A DNA stretch of 64,000 bases from positions 186,001-250,000 of the forward strand of contig AP026127.1 in the NCBI GenBank assembly GCA_030295235.1, read 5' to 3'. Under the pieces are notes generated by a model. That model ran no database searches and had not been told where the DNA came from. It saw nothing but the letters and a program-made list of their open reading frames with translations. This document shows positions 28,692 to 54,900 of this stretch, one piece after another. Numbering within the stretch: position 1 is the first letter of the stretch; each line of letters starts with the position of its first letter. The position numbers were made by a program, and so were the translations under genes. This DNA is from Fistulifera solaris (lineage: Eukaryota).

Positions 28692-29349
28692 ATGGACGAA
28701 CAACTGAATGAATAAAAAAATTTTCTAAAAAAAAAAATAATGAACCTGATAATGATGGTCTACCCGTCGCTCGTCGTATGTTGTACAATACGTCTACGAG
28801 TTACTACAAGTACGTACCGTACCTAGAATTTCCATTTCGCAGTTCGCATTTGAGCTCTTGATTCATTAAGCCCCATAGGAATGCACTAGACATTGTACTC
28901 TGTTGACAAGAAAACGAAGACGAAGCTTTTGACTAATAAAGCAACACAGAACACAGAAGGTAAGAGGCAAAACGGCAAAACCGTATTCTGTGCATTCTTC
29001 ATTCCCATTCCCGAAGTTGGTGGCATCTCCGTGGCATCATTCTTCATTCCGGTGCAATGACGTTGGAAAACGACTCGAGACTGCAAAGTCGAAAAATTGA
29101 TGTTTGTCCCTTCTTCAGGACTGCTAGTGCATCCCCGAGTTGTTCGCATTATCTGTCATTCCTCAATTTACGCATTCCTAGGCCGCAATTTTCCTTGATA
29201 GCACACTGCAGAGCATTGAATTCTCGTTGCTTTGATTAAATCACAAATAGCTTAAACGAAAAATGAATGTTTATGTACTAAAATAGCATAAAATTTCTTG
29301 TAGCATTGTCGTTCGGCGGCTAAGGAAACATGGCAGGACTGTTGTCTCT

Positions 29350-29847
29350 TTAATTGATGTATGAGTATCCGAAGGGGGTAATATCGCACTTCCCTTCGAG
29401 ACAGCGTTGCATGTGATTGAAAAATTCAACGCCTAGAAGCGCCTCCAGTCTTGTTTCAATGGCGTTCTTGAGGGGCACGAAGCGCCCGTCGCCTTGACGG
29501 TTGTTTTGAACACATCGTTGAATGACTTGTTTGGTCTTCTCGAGAAGCTCGATATTATACGAGCGTTCCAAGTACAGCAAGATCATCTTGATCAAGAGAA
29601 GAAACTTTTCGCGCTCGGTAATCATTCTTCGTCTGCGCTGCTGATGTCCAAGAGGAGACCGCATCGATGGCATGGGGTCCGCGAAGGTCGACTGCACGAG
29701 TGGCGGTGCGGCCACCGATTGTGGAGGAAAAAGGAGCTGAGGATCGATAGTCATGAACGATAAGTTAGGAAAGGTTGAATACATTGGAGTGGCTTGCTCA
29801 ATGGTGCTGCGTGTGGGTGTAATTCGGCACATGGGTGAAAAGATCAT
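29350..29847 (-). CDS. Hypothetical protein with a small helical domain (EREKFLLLIK...)
   Basis: 165-aa ORF with a low-complexity N-terminus and an amphipathic helical C-terminal domain of a kind I recall from other diatom hypothetical proteins. Confidence 0.65.
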   Translation of the reverse strand: MIFSPMCRITPTRSTIEQATPMYSTFPNLSFMTIDPQLLFPPQSVAAPPLVQSTFADPMPSMRSPLGHQQRRRRMITEREKFLLLIKMILLYLERSYNIELLEKTKQVIQRCVQNNRQGDGRFVPLKNAIETRLEALLGVEFFNHMQRCLEGKCDITPFGYSYIN

Positions 29848-30449
29848 GTTCTGGTGGAATGGATTTGTGAGGGGAGGATTGTCGAGAGAAATTGGCCGTA
29901 ATCCGAAGTCGCCCCACCAACCACCAATAGTGTGCTCGGTTTTGTTATAAAGAGCAAAAGGTACTATGGTCTACAAAGTGCAGTGCTTGTTCAATATTCG
30001 GATTTGGGGTACAAACGAGAAGAGTGAAGAGCCCCCTTCCGAACCACATCAGTTTTCTATACTGTGGAGTGACATTTCCGATCCCAGTTTCGTTTTATTG
30101 ACAACTTGTTCGCATTTCGTACGTGGAACTTGGAATAACGAACGAACAAGTACGTAGTAGTGAAATGACGTTCGTCGTTCGTCGTAGACTACAATTCCCT
30201 CGTAGTATGTGCCATACGACTCAAAAATTATGAGTCCCTTACCATTCATGACACAGTTTTGTGAGTCATGAATTGAATCTTCAACGCGATGACGCTTTCG
30301 TCGCCGCACGGAAACAACGCCATTTGGCGGCGGAGCGTTGACTTTATAAACAACGGATTATAGCTATACAATCACCTTATTCAGTCCTCTTGCTGCGCTG
30401 TCGAAGCCAATTCTAATGAGAGTAATTTGACGGGGAAGAGGCTCTCAAG

Positions 30450-47246: not shown

Positions 47247-48463
47247 GGTCTTTTTTCTCTGTGTATACTTCCGTCGCTGAACAAAGTTCTACTATCCTAA
47301 TCAATTGAAGAAACGAATCAATTTGCAGCTTGTATACAACAAAACAAACTTGTTGTGATTTTGCTTGATGCGATTGCGATAAAATGGCGCAAAATCCTCA
47401 TGACGGCAAACGCGGGTTGCGCTGCGTCATCTTTTTTCATTTTTTATATAGAATTGTCATGCCATAGCGGTACCTGAACTATAGTTACAAAGTGTGTCAG
47501 ACGTTTCGTTGTATTTGGCCTACGTTATTATTTTAGTTCTTGTTGCAATGCAAAAATCGATCAATCATTTGAATCGGTCGTTCCTCTGGAGGACTAAACA
47601 CCTAATAGCAGTATCTTATGCATCAGCTATTGGGTGTATTAAATTTTAATTTCTCGGAAAACCTCCCGGAAATCCATGGAGGGCTGAAAGATATTGTCCC
47701 CATAGATTGTCGACAAGCGGAAACACACGACAATCAATTTTCGCACTTCGTTGAGTTCGACCATGAATCTAAACGGGTTCGACGTTCGTCTCGCTAGAGT
47801 CATGCGCAACCAAACGATTAACACCTTGATAGACGTTGCAGTAGTTCCGGGCATTTTACGGGATGAGAACTTAAACATTCTTATGCCGCTACGGCAAAGG
47901 AAGTTCTACTATTTTTGAATGCAACACGGTGATGATTCATTCGAGAGCCAACGACTTCTCTCTAGCCTATCGCATTGCGTGGCGAACCTGTCCATGACTT
48001 CGTTTTCGACCCATCTCCTAAAGTTGATCGATGCATCAATGCAGAGAGGAATCGATCCGCTTGCGTCTTAATACTGGTCGGCGACCCCGGTGTCGGCCGG
48101 GAGGCGCCAGAGGCGTCTTCCTTGAATTATGCCATCGACTGGATTCCTGTTCGACGACTTCGAAGCTGGAATGTAAATTAGCTGACAACGACGACCTTGG
48201 AGGTCGCCCTTTGGCTGGTGCATTTAGCGAGAATGCGGGCAGGCGATACAAGTCAGATCATTTGATTGGATATCAGAAAAAGGTTTTCTCTATTATGCTC
48301 ACGAAAATTCCGAGATGCTTCTTTGGAATTCGGATTAACTGTCGGCGAAATGTGCCTTTGCATCAAAACCGGAAGCGCCGTGATTTTACGAGGAACTTCG
48401 TGTCGTACGACTTTTCTGCACCGTCATTATTTCTCTTCGATCGATGCTGTACATTTCACGATA

Positions 48464-49945
48464 ATGTCAGACGCGATGCAGGACACTAGCCTCTTGTTTG
48501 GTGTGATTCCACCCTCCCTTTGCACACCAGAGCAAGTTGCTACTTGGGATGACGGGAAGGTATTGCACACGTACAAGCTACTTCGAACACCAGTAAATTG
48601 GGGAGAAATCATCCAGTACGGTAACGCCGCTATGGCTATATGGCGGGATAACGGCACCCTTACTTATATTGCCCCGTGCAATGGCGACACCCACTTTCCG
48701 GAATCAAACGAAAGCAAGCCTTCCTTGTGGTTCTACTTAAACCACCTCAAGCTGGACATAACCGGTAATACAGAAAAAGATGTTGCGGAAACGGCTGCAT
48801 TCTTTCTTCAATTGGAGGAACCTACGGGGCAGACCTCTATATTGGACATAACTGGTCACACGCCTGATGATTTTGATTTCCGTGCTGTTGATGTGCAGTG
48901 CTTAGCACATATCTTTGAAGTGGCCCCATTGCGGTGTGTGCGGTTTTGTTGCTTAACACTGAGTGCCGAACAGTCTCGTGTTCTCGCAACAAGACCGCAT
49001 GCCGTGGAGTTGGCATTTTGTGGGTGTTTGTTTGATGATCATGGCGATGCATTTGTGGATGCTTTACTGAGTCGTCAGTCTTTGTTCGGTTCATTGGAAA
49101 TAGAGGACAATGATTTGCTGAGTGACAACAACCTAAAGCGACTTTTGCAAGCTGACGTGCTGAATTATTTGGGCTTACAAAGCTTGAAGAACGAACTCCT
49201 GTTTCTTCCTTTGCCGGCTCGAGTGGATTCTCTTGATTATAGGATGTCGTCAAAATCCCTGATGGAAGATGATTTTCAGCATGCATTCATTGCAGCAAAG
49301 AAGCTATCACTAGTTATTGATCATGATGGACAACAATTTCCGACTGAAGCCTTGATATCCTTTCTGCAGCGTGTGGCTGCTTTGGGTCATTTTGTTTCGC
49401 TGCGATTCTTAGTCATCATGCCAAATCGGTTCATAGCGATTCCAGTCTGTATTGCACACGAACTGATACACGCTACCCTTGCCAATCCTAACTTGGAGGT
49501 TCTTGATTTGTCGTTCTGTAACTGGGACTGGGAACCCCACTTCGAGATACTTTTCGAGGGTATCAAAGATCACAAACAACTCTGCTCTTTGCATCTATGT
49601 GCTCGCAAACCAGCGACTTCGTTCGGGTCTGACTTTTGTCATCTTCGTAAATTGCTTTCCGTTAACCGGAAAATCATTGTTTGGGATGAAAGAGAAAACC
49701 CTTTTTCAGATGGTTCGTCGATTGACGCACTCTACGAACTGAACCGCTTTTATCGTGGTTCGGCGGGACTCGTGGCCGAGTCTCCAGCGGAGCGACAGCT
49801 GCTGCTAGCGTCGGCCTTGATGGAGAACGCGGCCGACAACCTTCAGTGCTCTGCGCTTTTGTTATTTGACCACTTGGATGTGTTGTTTGATCTACTGCAG
49901 TTTGCGCACTTGAACGAACTGTTCGGAGACAATCTTCGATTGTAG
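48464..49945 (+). CDS. RNI/LRR-like family copy, intact
   Basis: Uninterrupted ORF: CTPEQVATW, IWRDNGTLTYIAP, FDDHGDAFVDALLSRQSLFGSL, LGHFVSL, LYELNRFYRGSA. Confidence 0.85.
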   Translation: MSDAMQDTSLLFGVIPPSLCTPEQVATWDDGKVLHTYKLLRTPVNWGEIIQYGNAAMAIWRDNGTLTYIAPCNGDTHFPESNESKPSLWFYLNHLKLDITGNTEKDVAETAAFFLQLEEPTGQTSILDITGHTPDDFDFRAVDVQCLAHIFEVAPLRCVRFCCLTLSAEQSRVLATRPHAVELAFCGCLFDDHGDAFVDALLSRQSLFGSLEIEDNDLLSDNNLKRLLQADVLNYLGLQSLKNELLFLPLPARVDSLDYRMSSKSLMEDDFQHAFIAAKKLSLVIDHDGQQFPTEALISFLQRVAALGHFVSLRFLVIMPNRFIAIPVCIAHELIHATLANPNLEVLDLSFCNWDWEPHFEILFEGIKDHKQLCSLHLCARKPATSFGSDFCHLRKLLSVNRKIIVWDERENPFSDGSSIDALYELNRFYRGSAGLVAESPAERQLLLASALMENAADNLQCSALLLFDHLDVLFDLLQFAHLNELFGDNLRL

Positions 49946-50351
49946 CGTGATTCTTTCGAAATCAGTAAACTGACTACACTAAGGTGCATTTACATATAGT
50001 TTACTTGAATTAGGCTAGCTAGCTGTTCTTAGCTATCTGATATAGAGGGGAAAGAAACCGTACAAACCTTTAGCTAAGGTTTTGCAAACATCCGAAACCG
50101 CTTCGACTTCGGCGACAAAAATGGCTCGACGGACCGGTATACGTTATAATAGATACGGATATTCATTGACGTTTCGTTTCTATGAGTATGGTCCTGTGCA
50201 CGCGCTCTAAAAGCATTTTCGTTTTGTTTTGCCTTTATTACTACGAAAAATATCATTTGATTATTGCTGTCTGTTATTTCGTATGACGGTCTTGCCTTTC
50301 TGTGTGCTAACAAGCAAGCAAGCAAGCAAGCAAAGAAACAAGCAAGCCGCA

Positions 50352-51295
50352 ATGTTATCTCGCGCTCAAACCCGTATTCTGAGCCGCACGAGAATGCTCT
50401 CAACATCCTCATTACGTCACTCTCTCGTCGTTCCTGTCGAACTCGTCAGTGACACCATGTGACCCAACGGTACGCATTTGTACATTGAAGCTTTCTCTTT
50501 CTCTCCTGTTTTCGTGATCTCACTTTCCATTCTGTTGTATCAGGCTACATCGGCAAGAAGCACTTGCAAACCGCCATTCAAACCGTCTTGGATGCACCTC
50601 TCCATCCGGACCGCCCTTTGGCGTTTGCCGTCCTCCGCGTCCCCTTCTTTCTCGAACCACAGTACGATGAAACCAAGCCTTTCATTGAAACAAATCGCGA
50701 ACGCCTCCTCACCAAATGGGGAGCACAATGGCCCCGGCAAAAGCAAACACACAACCTCAAAGGCCGCGGCATCCAAGCCGGGATACCGCATTTCAATTTA
50801 GATCGCTTGGCCTCCAATACCATGGCGTCGCATCGGTTGATTCAATATTTGGGAAAGACGTACGGATTGGATGTTTCCGAAGCGATTTATGATGTTTTGA
50901 ATGTGTATTATTTCGTCGATGGACATTCGTTGAACGATCATCCGCGTCTGGCTCAAGTCGTTGCCGACGCCTTGTCGAATTTATTTGCAAAACGCGCCAT
51001 GCCAGCTCCTACATCAAAAGAATTGCTGGATTTCTTGTCGAGTCAACAGGGCCGCAAAGAAATTCAGGCGGCAACGGCAGCTTTGCAGCAACTGGGAATT
51101 CATAGCATTCCCAAATTCATCATTGAAGGGCAAACGGTGGTGGATGGTGCCGCTTTACCGGATGTCTTTGTACAAGTCTTTCGAGAAATAGAAGAGCGAG
51201 GAACAATAGCGGGAGGTCCCTTGTTTCGAGAAATCTTGGGTGTCTCGACCGAGACCATTGCCCGGGCCAGTCATCATCGTCAATGTGATGTCTAG
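50352..51295 (+). CDS. DsbA/FrnE-like thioredoxin-fold selenoprotein (UGA=Sec at 50460-50462), intron 50470-50543, mitochondrial-type presequence
   Basis: The spliced frame gives VELVSDTM-U-PNG|YIGKKHLQTA, matching FrnE SDxxCPWCYIGKRRL. Other motifs: PFFLEP, NTMASHRLI, GIHSIPKFIIEG...VDGA. A SECIS-like hairpin lies downstream. Confidence 0.85.
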
Positions 51296-51405
51296 TCAAA
51301 TTCGAGAAGGAGGACGAGCGACAAATGCTGCCACTTTGAATAGAATATGTGGGTGAAAAAGGACGACATTGAGATCTATAATTGGAATGGATTCCCGGCC
51401 GTAAC

Positions 51406-51475
51406 GGAGATTCTTACTGAGAATGACGAGCCCAGTTACGTCCTTCATGAACGGGTTCTGATAGTCAGACAATCC
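51406..51475 (+). promoter_or_regulatory. Eukaryotic SECIS-like element in 3' UTR
   Basis: ATGAC (51423) / TGAT (51459) core; helix II GAGCCC/GGGTTC + GTT/AAC + CGT/ATG; loop CCTTC; helix I CTGA/TCAG and GATT/AATC. Confidence 0.75.
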
Positions 51476-51944
51476 AACGTTGCTGTCGGGTCGATGTTTT
51501 GTCCATAAAAGCTAGATAGAAAAGATATGGAATAATAACTTTGTTAAGTTGAATGCGTTTTGATTTGAATTACCAGCACCTATATTATTAAGCCGAGCAC
51601 GAATCACTTTAGTCCCGTTCGGAAATTCGGCCGAGTACTGTTGGACCTATACTATCAAAAGAACGGTCGTCTGTACGTACGTACCTACGAAAGGCGGAGG
51701 AGAAAATTCGGGCGCGAGATTCAACTGCAACGAACGTCAATCGGAATAGTGAATCATCAACAAGGAGTCAATCCTATTGATGTCATTGATGATAGAGAGA
51801 TTCATCACACGAAATAGAAGCGTGTTGTGGGTGAAAGTTTAATTCGACAACGAGCTTTTGTTGTAGAAAAGCAAACGAGAGAGAGCTCCTAAACTCGTTC
51901 GAAATCGCCTCAGACGCACACTTATTCGCACTTTTATACGAGTA

Positions 51945-54900
51945 TTGATTGCACTAACATGCCTTCCCGCAAACGATCACCCTCTTTTGTGGAAGAATCG
52001 AAAGAAGAAGAAACTCCGGCACAACGACTCCTGGCGGCCCTTTTATGGCAGCACTTTCAACGCACAGGTAAGTGAAAATACCCGTCTTACTGCTCAAAAC
52101 ATTACGAAACGAAACACTGATCATTGCTTAGGTCAATCGGCATTGCATACGGCAATTGCGACGGGAGATTTGGCCTTGGCGGCGGCGTTGCTGGAACGAT
52201 GTCCAACGAAGGAGATTCTGATGACACCCGATGCCGAATCGTTGTATACACCTTTGCACGAAGCGATTTATCAACGGCAGTTGAGTTTTGTGTTGCTGCT
52301 CTTACGGACGCCCTCAAAACTACGACGACCCATGGCATTGTTGCAAAATGATGAAACGAATGATTTGCAGTTTATGACAATGGCGGTGGATGCCGAAGGG
52401 CTCACGCCGGCTTGTCTACTCAAACAACTGCAACGCACCGAATTGCAAGCATGTCGTCAACAATTACTGTACGAACCGCGGATTGTAGGATCCTCTGTAT
52501 TGGGAGGACGACAATTTCGGAGTTCCAGTTTTGATTCGTTACAGGCGGAACAGGATGAATTGCATGAACTGGGACAACATTTAGACGCCTTGCGAACGCA
52601 TGATGAAGAAGAAGACGAGCCTATGGCAAGGTACGGATGTGAAGTGCTGACATTCGGAAGAGCCCATCATTGTGCTTTGGGTACAGACTCGTCGGTCGAT
52701 GGTCGTCCTCAACGAGTTCAGTACTTTGCACAAGATTGTGTGGAGCATCACGGAGGAGCGGTGGGTGTGAGTGGTGCTCCTCATCACACGGTGGTGGTTA
52801 CGGCGTCGGGGCAGTTGTATGCCTTTGGCTTGGGCAAAGGAGGACGTCTGGGAACCGGAGATGAAGCACCATGTTCCGTTCCCACGCGTGTCATGGGAGC
52901 CTTGTCGCAACGACATGTCATAGCCGCGGCGGCCGCCGACAATCATACCGTGGCGGTGTGTCGGGATGGGAGTGTCTTTGCGTGGGGCTCGAGCCGATTC
53001 GGACAAATTGGTTCCGGCGGCGATAGTAGTCCGCGTTGTTCACCACGGCGTGTGGATGATTTGAAAGGAATCGTGTGTGTCAGTGTAGCAGCAGGTGAGA
53101 AGCATTCGGTGGCGTTGTCACAGCGTGGGGAAGTCTATGTATGGGGTGATAATACCAACGGTCAATTGGGGATCAGCCGTCGGAACGGCACGCATCGTGT
53201 GCAACGCGTTGAGGCTTTATGGAATTCCAAGAAGATTGCAATTTCAATTGCCGCGTCGTCTCATGCTACACTAGTCTTGACGAAACCAACCGGGACGAAT
53301 CTTCCTGTCAATACAGTGTTTTCGTGGGGACACGGCAGTCACGTTCCTAGCAAGGTGCATTTCGAGCAATGCAACGAGAGTCGCGCCAAAATGGTACAGC
53401 CGGTAGCCATTGCCTGCGCGCGCTATCACAATGTTGTGATCACGGCGGATGGTCTTGTTTATACATGGGGACTACACGCCGACCCCTTGGGCAAGCGGTC
53501 GAATTCACACACAACACAGCCTAGTCTCGTCACTGGGATGTTACCACGGAACGGCGGAGGCGTGGCGGTAGCCGTGTCAGCGTCCGAGAATCATACGGCC
53601 ATTGTTACCGATACGGGTGAGCTGTTTACATGGGGTGCAACGTATGGCAAGAATATTCTTGGTCACGAAGGTGTCAACTGGCAACCGGATCCGAAGCGCG
53701 TGCCCGGCGTCTGTCGAGTGTTTGCGGTAGCGGCTGCTAAAGAGCACACAATCCTGCTCATGGGGGCATCCTTCCCAACGATCAAGCCGGTACCGACTCT
53801 TGGCTCTCTTGGAAGTGTAGCCGCTAGGCGGCTTGCGGAGCACGTTGATTTGTTCAATGTTCTACCAGTTTTGATTGTTGCCAATCGGATTCAGGATGAA
53901 TATCTCCGCGATTATTGCTTGAAATTTATTCATCGAAATTTAGATGGAGTCTTAAATGTTTGCCAAAAGCGGGTTGCAGATCAGTATCTTACGGAAGAAC
54001 TACATGGCGCTTCCATTGAATTTTGTGACGAAGGATCTTTTCACCCCTTGCTGCTTTCAACGCTGGTTGGTTTTCAGGTAAAGGAAACACGCTCTGTACG
54101 ACAGGATTTGCTTTCTCAAACAGACGAATGGCTCGATTATTGCAACAAATTGCTGAGCACCAATCCATATGCGGCCCGAATTGTTGCGAAATACGAGGTC
54201 ACGAAACAAACTAAAGGTATCCTACAGAGAGCACAACTACAAATGGTAAACGAGGAACGTTCTTCGGCTTCTGAAAGGTGCCTTGAGCTCGTCAACAAGA
54301 TGGATCTATCCACTAAATCACAAGCGGAAGTTACCATGAGTTCTTTATCACGAGAAGCGCGACTGATCAAAAAGCGTCTCGGTCAGATAGCCAAACTAGA
54401 GATGAAAAACAGTTCTCTGACAGAGGAAGAGCGAGAGAAGGTATCACGAAAGCTACAGCTGGAGTCGGACCTCCTAGCTGTGGAGCCTGCTATGGAAACC
54501 GTTCGTCTCACTCTTGAACGCATGATAATTGAGCAGCAACGAGAGGAAGCAGCGAAGGTAGAGAAAACAGTGCGAAGAAGTTGTCGCAACTATTCAATTA
54601 GAGGCTCCGGTGAAATCAGCGACCAGCTATAGATGCGAAATATGCCAGATCAACTGCTCGGATGTCATAAACTATGAACTACATTTGAACGGTCGAAAGC
54701 ATCGAAACAAAGTAGCACAGAAAGCGGAGGACGAACAAAGAGAAACTGCAGAAGCTGTCATGAAACAGAGTTTGATCCAGAAAGTACGAGATCCGATAAT
54801 TAACCAGCCTGTTATTGAGCCCCCTCGACGAGGACCTCCAGATTCTTGGAACTCGAAGAAATCAAACTCTTTGCCGAAGTTCAACTTACCTCCTCCGCCG

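Follow-up and report, generated by a model that had tools for sequence, protein, structure and literature searches.

FrnE proteins of bacteria are DsbA-type oxidoreductases with a CPWC active site and, as a feature of the family, a pair of cysteines near the C terminus. The gene described here encodes a eukaryotic relative of these proteins and occupies positions 50352–51295 in a stretch of 64,000 nucleotides from the diatom Fistulifera solaris (contig AP026127.1; the whole stretch is called the window in the following). We consider it very likely that the locus is a nuclear diatom gene with two exons for an enzyme of the DsbA/FrnE fold with a single active-site selenol, in which a UGA codon is recoded to selenocysteine (Sec, U) and an external thiol recycles the enzyme, probably in mitochondria.

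Selenoproteins of this type have been described before. According to the parts of the literature covered here, eukaryotic DsbA-like and FrnE selenoproteins use a selenocysteine insertion sequence (SECIS) element in the 3′ untranslated region (3′UTR) and are routinely mis-annotated (PMC1088965, PMC2874816, PMC3473315, PMC6627142, PMC7539508). DsbA-like selenoproteins with a UxxC motif were found in Sargasso Sea sequences (PMC1088965); further ones are known from Micromonas, Ciona and amphioxus, with the UxxC motif given in the legend to Figure 11 (PMC2874816), from marine invertebrates (PMC3473315) and, as Sec-FrnE, from Mamiellophyceae (PMC6627142), and DSBA counts among the most widely distributed algal Sec families (PMC7539508). 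Three of these sources (PMC7539508, PMC2874816, PMC6627142) thereby bear out the statement in a preliminary description of the locus that DsbA-like selenoproteins occur in algae. Diatoms possess tRNA-Sec and selenoproteins, and the 2007 list for T. pseudonana, as far as that paper was covered, comprises 16 selenoproteins and no DsbA (PMC2375036). For prokaryotes, the table of a 2026 review distinguishes a DsbA-like form 1 (UxxC) and a form 2 (DxxUP); in the part of the review covered, UxxG is given only for other families, namely arsenite methyltransferase and rhodanese (PMC13188914). Our literature searches, with the diatom entries and motifs in the supplements of PMC7539508 lying outside their coverage, returned no UxxG selenoprotein of the DsbA fold described in diatoms. 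The DsbA/FrnE selenoprotein family is already known and well catalogued in algae; what appears to be new, as far as searched, is the UxxG active site alone.

The predicted F. solaris protein shares the first strand, the motif S-D-x-x-[C/U]-P-x-x-Y-I-G-K and the cis-Pro region G-[IV]-P-x-F with FrnE of Deinococcus radiodurans (structure 5cnw) and with SCO1869 (3gl5), both cytosolic disulfide oxidoreductases of the DsbA-like type. It differs from FrnE in its U-P-N-G active site in place of CPWC, in the lack of a conserved C-terminal Cys pair, in a clade-specific insertion and a G-S-H tail, and in being a eukaryotic protein with a putative presequence, whose synthesis would need recoding of a TGA. 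The published DsbA-like/FrnE selenoproteins belong to the same Pfam family and likewise have their Sec at the start of the redox motif; theirs reads UxxC, whereas the diatom motif reads UxxG. The prokaryotic form 2 (DxxUP, PF01323) is tabulated with a Sec motif that shows no second Cys, which the diatom S-D-T-[LM]-U-P fits in a comparison by motif only, made with the form as tabulated in the part of the review covered (PMC13188914).

Gene structure, family and fold

The coding sequence (CDS) starts at ATG 50352–50354 and continues through 36 sense codons to an in-frame TGA at 50460–50462, which is followed by CCC AAC G. These last seven bases encode Pro, Asn and the first base of a Gly codon and complete the coding part of exon 1 (50352–50469), which also specifies a basic, Ser/Thr-rich presequence of about 24 amino acids (50352–50423) and the first β-strand. 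A GT-AG intron of 74 nt (GTACGC...TATCAG, 50470–50543) in phase 1 splits the Gly codon as G|GC. Exon 2 resumes with GC TAC ATC GGC AAG AAG and encodes the remaining DsbA/FrnE-like thioredoxin-fold domain, assigned by Pfam DSBA and by homologues, up to the stop codon TAG 51293–51295 (coding part 50544–51295). All of these features lie on the forward strand. Joining both exons by script gave a CDS whose length is a multiple of three, with the TGA as the sole internal stop and 289 residues ahead of the terminal TAG. The list of open reading frames (ORFs) contains the gene only in pieces, as a 243-amino-acid ORF (50564–51295) and a separate upstream ORF (50229–50462) that ends at the TGA. The scripted CDS confirms the initial proposal that reading through the TGA and splicing out 50470–50543 joins the frame to the 243-amino-acid DsbA-like ORF.

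A search with exon 2 returned 499 homologues; those with a species name all come from diatoms, both centric and pennate (Cyclotella, Thalassiosira, Cylindrotheca, Entomoneis, Amphora, Nitzschia). A full-length orthologue, L025, which is ~68% identical to the window protein and in which the TGA was read as U and passed to the search as C, matches the Pfam family DSBA (PF01323) with 37.8 bits at a cut-off of 25.6 and covers profile positions 2–186 of 191. Exon 2 of the window alone scores 24.2 bits, slightly under the cut-off, since the first strand and the motif are encoded in exon 1. Neither the Sec nor the Cys orthologue matched any family in NCBIfam. The top sequence matches in PDB by phmmer were D. 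radiodurans FrnE (5cnw, E 1.6e-7) and SCO1869 (3gl5, E 1.2e-6). In the alignment with FrnE, the Sec position lies over the first Cys and the Gly over the second Cys of CPWC, so that the TGA does fall on the column of the nucleophilic Cys, as had been claimed from the window sequence.

An AlphaFold model, built with a 53-sequence alignment for an orthologue ~68% identical to the window protein and not for the window protein itself, reached a predicted local distance difference test score of 89.4 and a predicted template-modelling (TM) score of 0.84. Foldseek aligned this model to 28 PDB chains at E ≤ 0.001; the matches listed are nearly all DsbA-type with FrnE first (target-normalised TM score 0.83), followed by SCO1869 (0.78) and then by DsbM, YjbH, GST kappa and HCCA isomerase. 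The predicted structure is a DSBA-like thioredoxin fold with an inserted helical domain. The same alignment of 53 sequences contains a conserved insertion specific for this clade and absent from FrnE (K-W-G-G ... Q-K ... H-D-L-K-G-R-G), as well as an invariant Ser-His within a conserved G-S-H tail near the C terminus. The tail or the insertion might contribute to the active site.

Conservation of the TGA codon and the U-P-N-G motif

To compare the locus with its relatives at the DNA level, contigs from the metagenomes of the Joint Genome Institute were scanned with an alignment of homologous proteins, which yielded 80 loci, mostly on intron-less contigs of 1–1.4 kb. The codon at the Sec column is TGA in 75 of them and TGT (Cys) in one, L012; TGG does not occur in any of the 80, and four loci were missed by the motif pattern. 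Two of them, L073 and the 5′-truncated L067, still show a TGA before P-N-G; L072 is cut at the 5′ end, and L079 is apparently interrupted by an intron ahead of the motif. The TGA is embedded in conserved peptides on both sides, L-V-[IV]-P-[IV]-E-L-[IV]-S-D-T-[LM] before and P-N-G-[YFM]-I-G-K-[KR] after it, both with synonymous codon variation, and the strand and motif upstream of and at the TGA are kept in frame in 76 of the 80 loci. As expected in the preliminary description, orthologues thus hold TGA or Cys at this column.

Distant relatives with 27–40% identity carry a redox Cys at the same position: 35 of the 37 fetched have CxxC (26 CPWC, 7 CPFC, 1 CPYC, 1 CIWC), and the other two are truncated models of the diatom type. 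An exhaustive HMMER search likewise separated two tiers, close relatives that nearly all begin just after the motif and distant ones that cover it; the starting point of the close relatives is consistent with a TGA in their genes, too. By sequence comparison, the locus appears as expected for a eukaryotic selenoprotein gene, with a conserved in-frame TGA, coding conservation on both flanks and Cys homologues at the column. A TGA at this place in 75 of 80 related loci is far beyond what chance would produce.

The exceptional locus L012 has its TGT at L012:2118–2120 and retains an ATGA/GA element in the 3′UTR at L012:2984–3060, and its closest-looking relative, L015, has a TGA. This looks like a recent change from Sec to Cys with a leftover SECIS element, or else like a base-call error.

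The residue three positions after the Sec is constant, too. U-P-N-G is invariant in the 76 loci matched by the pattern, and in the intron-less ones, which are the majority, TGA CCN AAY GGN TAY ATH GGN runs uninterrupted. The Gly and the splice are thereby confirmed, U-P-N-G does not depend on the choice of splice sites, and the replacement of the resolving Cys by Gly, claimed at first for the window sequence, holds in all of these loci. Five genomic loci (L050, L055, L063, L066, L068) carry GT-AG introns of 81–99 nt at the identical phase-1 site (G|GN), and the 74-nt intron of the window is consistent with this pattern. Reading the sequence by eye for other splice sites, by which the TGA would drop out or a Cys would stand at the fourth motif position, we found none that keeps the frame; the intron-less loci settle this question. 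The comparison suggests that the active site with a single Sec is apparently conserved throughout the diatoms.

The 3′UTR element

A SECIS-like element was identified at 51417–51468 on the forward strand, 127 nt past the stop codon, by our own scan, which required a closed hairpin together with ATGA and GA. In the window it consists of ATGA (51423–51426), a stem-loop (51427–51459) and GA (51460–51461) preceded by T; in an outer stem, CTGA 51417–51420 pairs with TCAG 51465–51468. Nearly all orthologue 3′UTRs of sufficient length contain the form GA-ATGA-[CTA]-R-G ... C-Y-T-GA at a distance of 25–170 nt (mostly 50–125) from the stop codon. Counted in the first 300 nt after the stop in de-duplicated 3′UTRs of at least 180 nt, the element was present in 47 of 51 orthologues, compared with one of 51 reverse complements and 5–12 of 51 in five rounds of shuffling, a rough control based on local single-letter swaps.

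The 29 candidate elements that were aligned match cleanly at both ends. Compensatory changes occur in each of the seven base pairs that adjoin the ATGA/GA core; the three closest to it are unbroken in every one of the 29 sequences. Paired cells amount to 87.2%, against 58.2% in shuffled alignments (none of 500 shuffles as high) and 31–56% with the partner column slid; the aligned candidates had been chosen by a folding criterion, and this percentage is partly given by construction. The covariation and the control on the reverse strand allow a fairer judgement. A covariance model derived from the 29 orthologue elements, with the window sequence excluded, holds little information (0.419 bits per position). 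On both strands of the window (128 kb), it places 51411–51473 second among eight matches (12.8 bits, E 2.7), and the first-ranked match lacks ATGA. Scaled to the few hundred bases of a 3′UTR, our own arithmetic gives a chance of about 0.006 for such a match.

The third-ranked match of the model, at 29103–29171 on the reverse strand (11.6 bits, E 4.4), has ATGA and TGA in place. We examined it as a possible true SECIS element; the ORFs upstream of it (for example 29350–29970) show no obvious redox motif interrupted by a TGA, and it is probably a chance match.

Several points weigh against the reading of the locus as an expressed, spliced selenoprotein gene with a SECIS element, in addition to the roughness of the shuffling control and the choice of the aligned candidates by folding. 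The element of the window is weak when taken alone, with the E-value of 2.7 at whole-window scale, where the covariance model does not single it out, a fold z-score of –1.74 and 10 of 200 shuffles folding equally well. Textbook SECIS elements usually carry an unpaired AA in their apical part, which is missing from the window element and from several orthologue elements. The SECIS models of Rfam gave no match at E ≤ 10 in 50200–52200 or in 20 orthologue loci, and the missing apical AA may account for this blindness. The only public sequencing run that covers the stretch (X1) yields contigs identical to the window over 50350–50866, TGA included, with 0 differences; these contigs are unspliced, without joints, and silent on splicing and expression. 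Because they are unspliced and possibly stem from the source sample, they do not count as independent support. Finally, a start at an upstream ATG (50283) would alter the N-terminus by a stretch that is mildly hydrophobic at its front and free of acidic residues.

Compartment, mechanism and decoding of the TGA

The first 24 residues of the protein begun at ATG 50352 contain 5 Arg/Lys, 9 Ser/Thr and no Asp/Glu, in line with the Arg/Ser-rich, acid-free N-terminus noted at the outset. The same trend is found in the 43 distinct N-termini of orthologues, taken up to the first strand (median length 35 amino acids; medians of 5 basic and 10 Ser/Thr residues and of 0 acidic ones): 40 of the 43 have no acidic residue in their first 20 amino acids, and only one has a hydrophobic core of signal-peptide strength. 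This composition fits matrix-targeting peptides, unlike the endoplasmic reticulum and plastid signals of diatoms, and from these sequences a mitochondrial location seems probable.

The start codon bears on this assignment. The in-frame ATG 50283–50285 (+), residue 19 of the ORF 50229–50462, sits 69 nt upstream of ATG 50352 and would add 23 residues. Both start candidates stand; the N-termini of the orthologues resemble the protein begun at 50352. A short (CAAG)n-like repeat (50310–50349) lies immediately ahead of ATG 50352, and 50250–50349 was skipped as a repeat in read mapping. Further upstream, a long ORF on the forward strand (48266–49945, 559 amino acids from a TTG start) ends ~400 nt before the selenoprotein gene.

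A selenoprotein that is cytosolic, peroxisomal or, by way of the longer N-terminus from 50283, directed elsewhere is unlikely, if worth keeping in mind. The mildly hydrophobic beginning added by the upstream ATG would suit the last of these, and bacterial FrnE and DsbM are cytosolic according to their structure entry titles. Such a location is hard to combine with 43 N-termini that resemble matrix presequences and with a single one among them that has the hydrophobic core needed for a diatom endoplasmic reticulum or plastid signal; a structural relative, GST kappa, is moreover titled mitochondrial in its structure entry, which is a weak analogy.

The catalytic residues set the protein apart from its bacterial relatives. 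Sec is the functional analogue of Cys, and the FrnE-type two-Cys motif S-D-x-x-C-P-W-C-Y-I-G-K is not matched in the diatom protein, which has Sec at the first and Gly at the second of these positions and keeps the S-D and Y-I-G-K flanks. Among the 53 aligned sequences, there is no invariant or near-invariant Cys column besides the Sec column; scattered Cys residues occur in some orthologues, and none of them is conserved. A C-terminal Cys pair like that of D. radiodurans FrnE is not conserved in the orthologue tail, where G-S-H is found instead. Without a second conserved Cys, no intramolecular selenenylsulfide would be formed, and we infer that turnover needs an external thiol for recycling.

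One could also imagine a selenoprotein that works by the classical two-residue mechanism and draws its resolving Cys from elsewhere in the chain or from a second subunit. D. radiodurans FrnE does have extra C-terminal Cys residues, and the structure of a C239S mutant exists (entry title); the scattered Cys residues of some orthologues could be seen in the same light. With no Cys column conserved besides Sec in the 53 sequences, a Ser-His tail without Cys and an invariant Gly at the second position, we regard this arrangement as very unlikely. CxxC is otherwise retained in this fold, and the invariant U-P-N-G points instead to a two-residue disulfide-exchange mechanism that has been given up.

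For the enzyme with a single selenol, we propose the following scheme. UGA 50460–50462 would be recoded to Sec with the help of the kink-turn SECIS element at 51417–51468, Sec taking the place of the nucleophilic N-terminal Cys of CPWC and Gly that of the resolving Cys. The selenolate would attack an oxidised substrate, which may be a hydroperoxide or a protein that is glutathionylated or held in a disulfide bond. A Se-S bond to glutathione would form, or a selenenic acid would be captured by glutathione, and a second glutathione would regenerate the selenol. Glutaredoxins take such a monothiol route, as do glutathione peroxidases in chemical terms. By analogy, the activity of the diatom enzyme may be that of a deglutathionylase/thiol transferase or that of a peroxidase.

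The choice of glutathione in this scheme follows the structural relatives. GST kappa, HCCA isomerase and DsbM have the same fold (Foldseek E 1e-4 to 1e-6), at only 12–16% identity in structural alignments; they use glutathione with a single active-site residue or none and serve as a model for the proposed mechanism. Neither Cys nor Sec acts as the nucleophile in GST kappa. According to structure entry titles, DsbM and FrnE were crystallised with glutathione, and GST kappa and HCCA isomerase are among the structural relatives. Since several of these relatives are glutathione enzymes, a glutathione-recycled monoselenol is the most economical reading, and by this analogy we would give glutathione dependence an even chance at best.

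How the TGA is decoded can be judged from the amino acids found at its column in protein databases. A search of 5.8 billion proteins with the N-terminal region found one Cys form, P0077, the product of L012, and four Trp forms (P0013, P0119, P0270, P0276). The Trp forms might suggest that UGA is read through as an ordinary amino acid, by near-cognate decoding as Trp or Cys or by a local change of the code, and not as Sec. As none of the 80 loci has TGG, they are best explained by prokaryote-style gene callers using a table in which TGA stands for Trp; judged from these loci, with the DNA of the four proteins themselves set aside, Trp at this column is probably a gene-calling artefact on eukaryotic contigs. 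Further points against read-through as an ordinary amino acid are the conserved ATGA/GA kink-turn element in the 3′UTRs, the redox Cys at this column in the distant relatives (CxxC in 35 of 37) and the Cys in the orthologue L012, and we consider such read-through highly improbable. Sec and Cys paired at one column are the usual signature of a selenoprotein. On comparative grounds, we hold with high confidence that the gene encodes a genuine selenoprotein with a U-P-N-G active site, into which Sec would be inserted at the TGA.

The TGA could instead be a true stop, in which case exon 1 would form a small ORF of its own upstream or the whole gene would be a pseudogene, and the DsbA-like part would be made from some other start codon or never. 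Gene callers read the locus in this way, and the reading would agree with P0038 beginning at an internal Met, with the Rfam result for 50200–52200 and with the unspliced X1 contigs, but it is extremely improbable: the first in-frame ATG of exon 2 lies deep within the fold and would cost the protein its first strand, the active-site helix and more, the peptide ahead of the TGA shows synonymous changes, stays in frame in 76 of 80 loci and can be aligned to the motif and the first strand of FrnE, and a pseudogene would not retain TGA, U-P-N-G and the 3′UTR element across centric and pennate diatoms.

The prediction that standard callers truncate the gene was borne out well beyond the window. The protein called in the window itself, P0038, starts at an internal Met and comprises 157 amino acids. 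Most homologue models begin right after the motif; some begin with M-T-Q-R-Y-V, which corresponds to a GTG start within the TGA region, and continue into the intron; in one model, from Amphora, splicing bypasses the motif; and two models among the exon 2 homologues read straight through with Trp at the Sec column. Two transcriptome-derived peptides, P0046 and P0051, open with M-T-Q, cross the TGA in the +2 frame and only afterwards join the main frame, which takes one base fewer than the loci show. We considered a real frameshift for them and attribute the shift to error-correcting ORF prediction that likely bridged the stop.

The gene and its orthologues are thus mis-called in nearly all database entries seen, be it by truncation after the TGA, by a start in the intron, by skipping of the motif or by Trp at the Sec position. 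For this reason, the gene may be missing from diatom selenoproteomes and from estimates of selenium demand that rest on these. Trp at known Cys positions in such protein collections could serve as a general route to eukaryotic selenoproteins, and L012, a Cys orthologue that retains the 3′UTR element, may offer a small natural example of the conversion of Sec to Cys.

On the widest view, diatoms would have turned a dithiol oxidoreductase of the FrnE type into a mitochondrial enzyme with a single Sec and no resolving Cys, belonging to a class of glutathione-recycled peroxidases or deglutathionylases. We put this forward tentatively, as something short of an even chance. If true, it would mean a separate catalytic class within the DsbA fold and a second route to the chemistry of glutathione peroxidases on another scaffold, which has not been described as such. 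The invariant U-P-N-G makes the gene a clear and testable case for monoselenol catalysis on a DsbA scaffold, in organisms to which much of the primary production of the sea is due.

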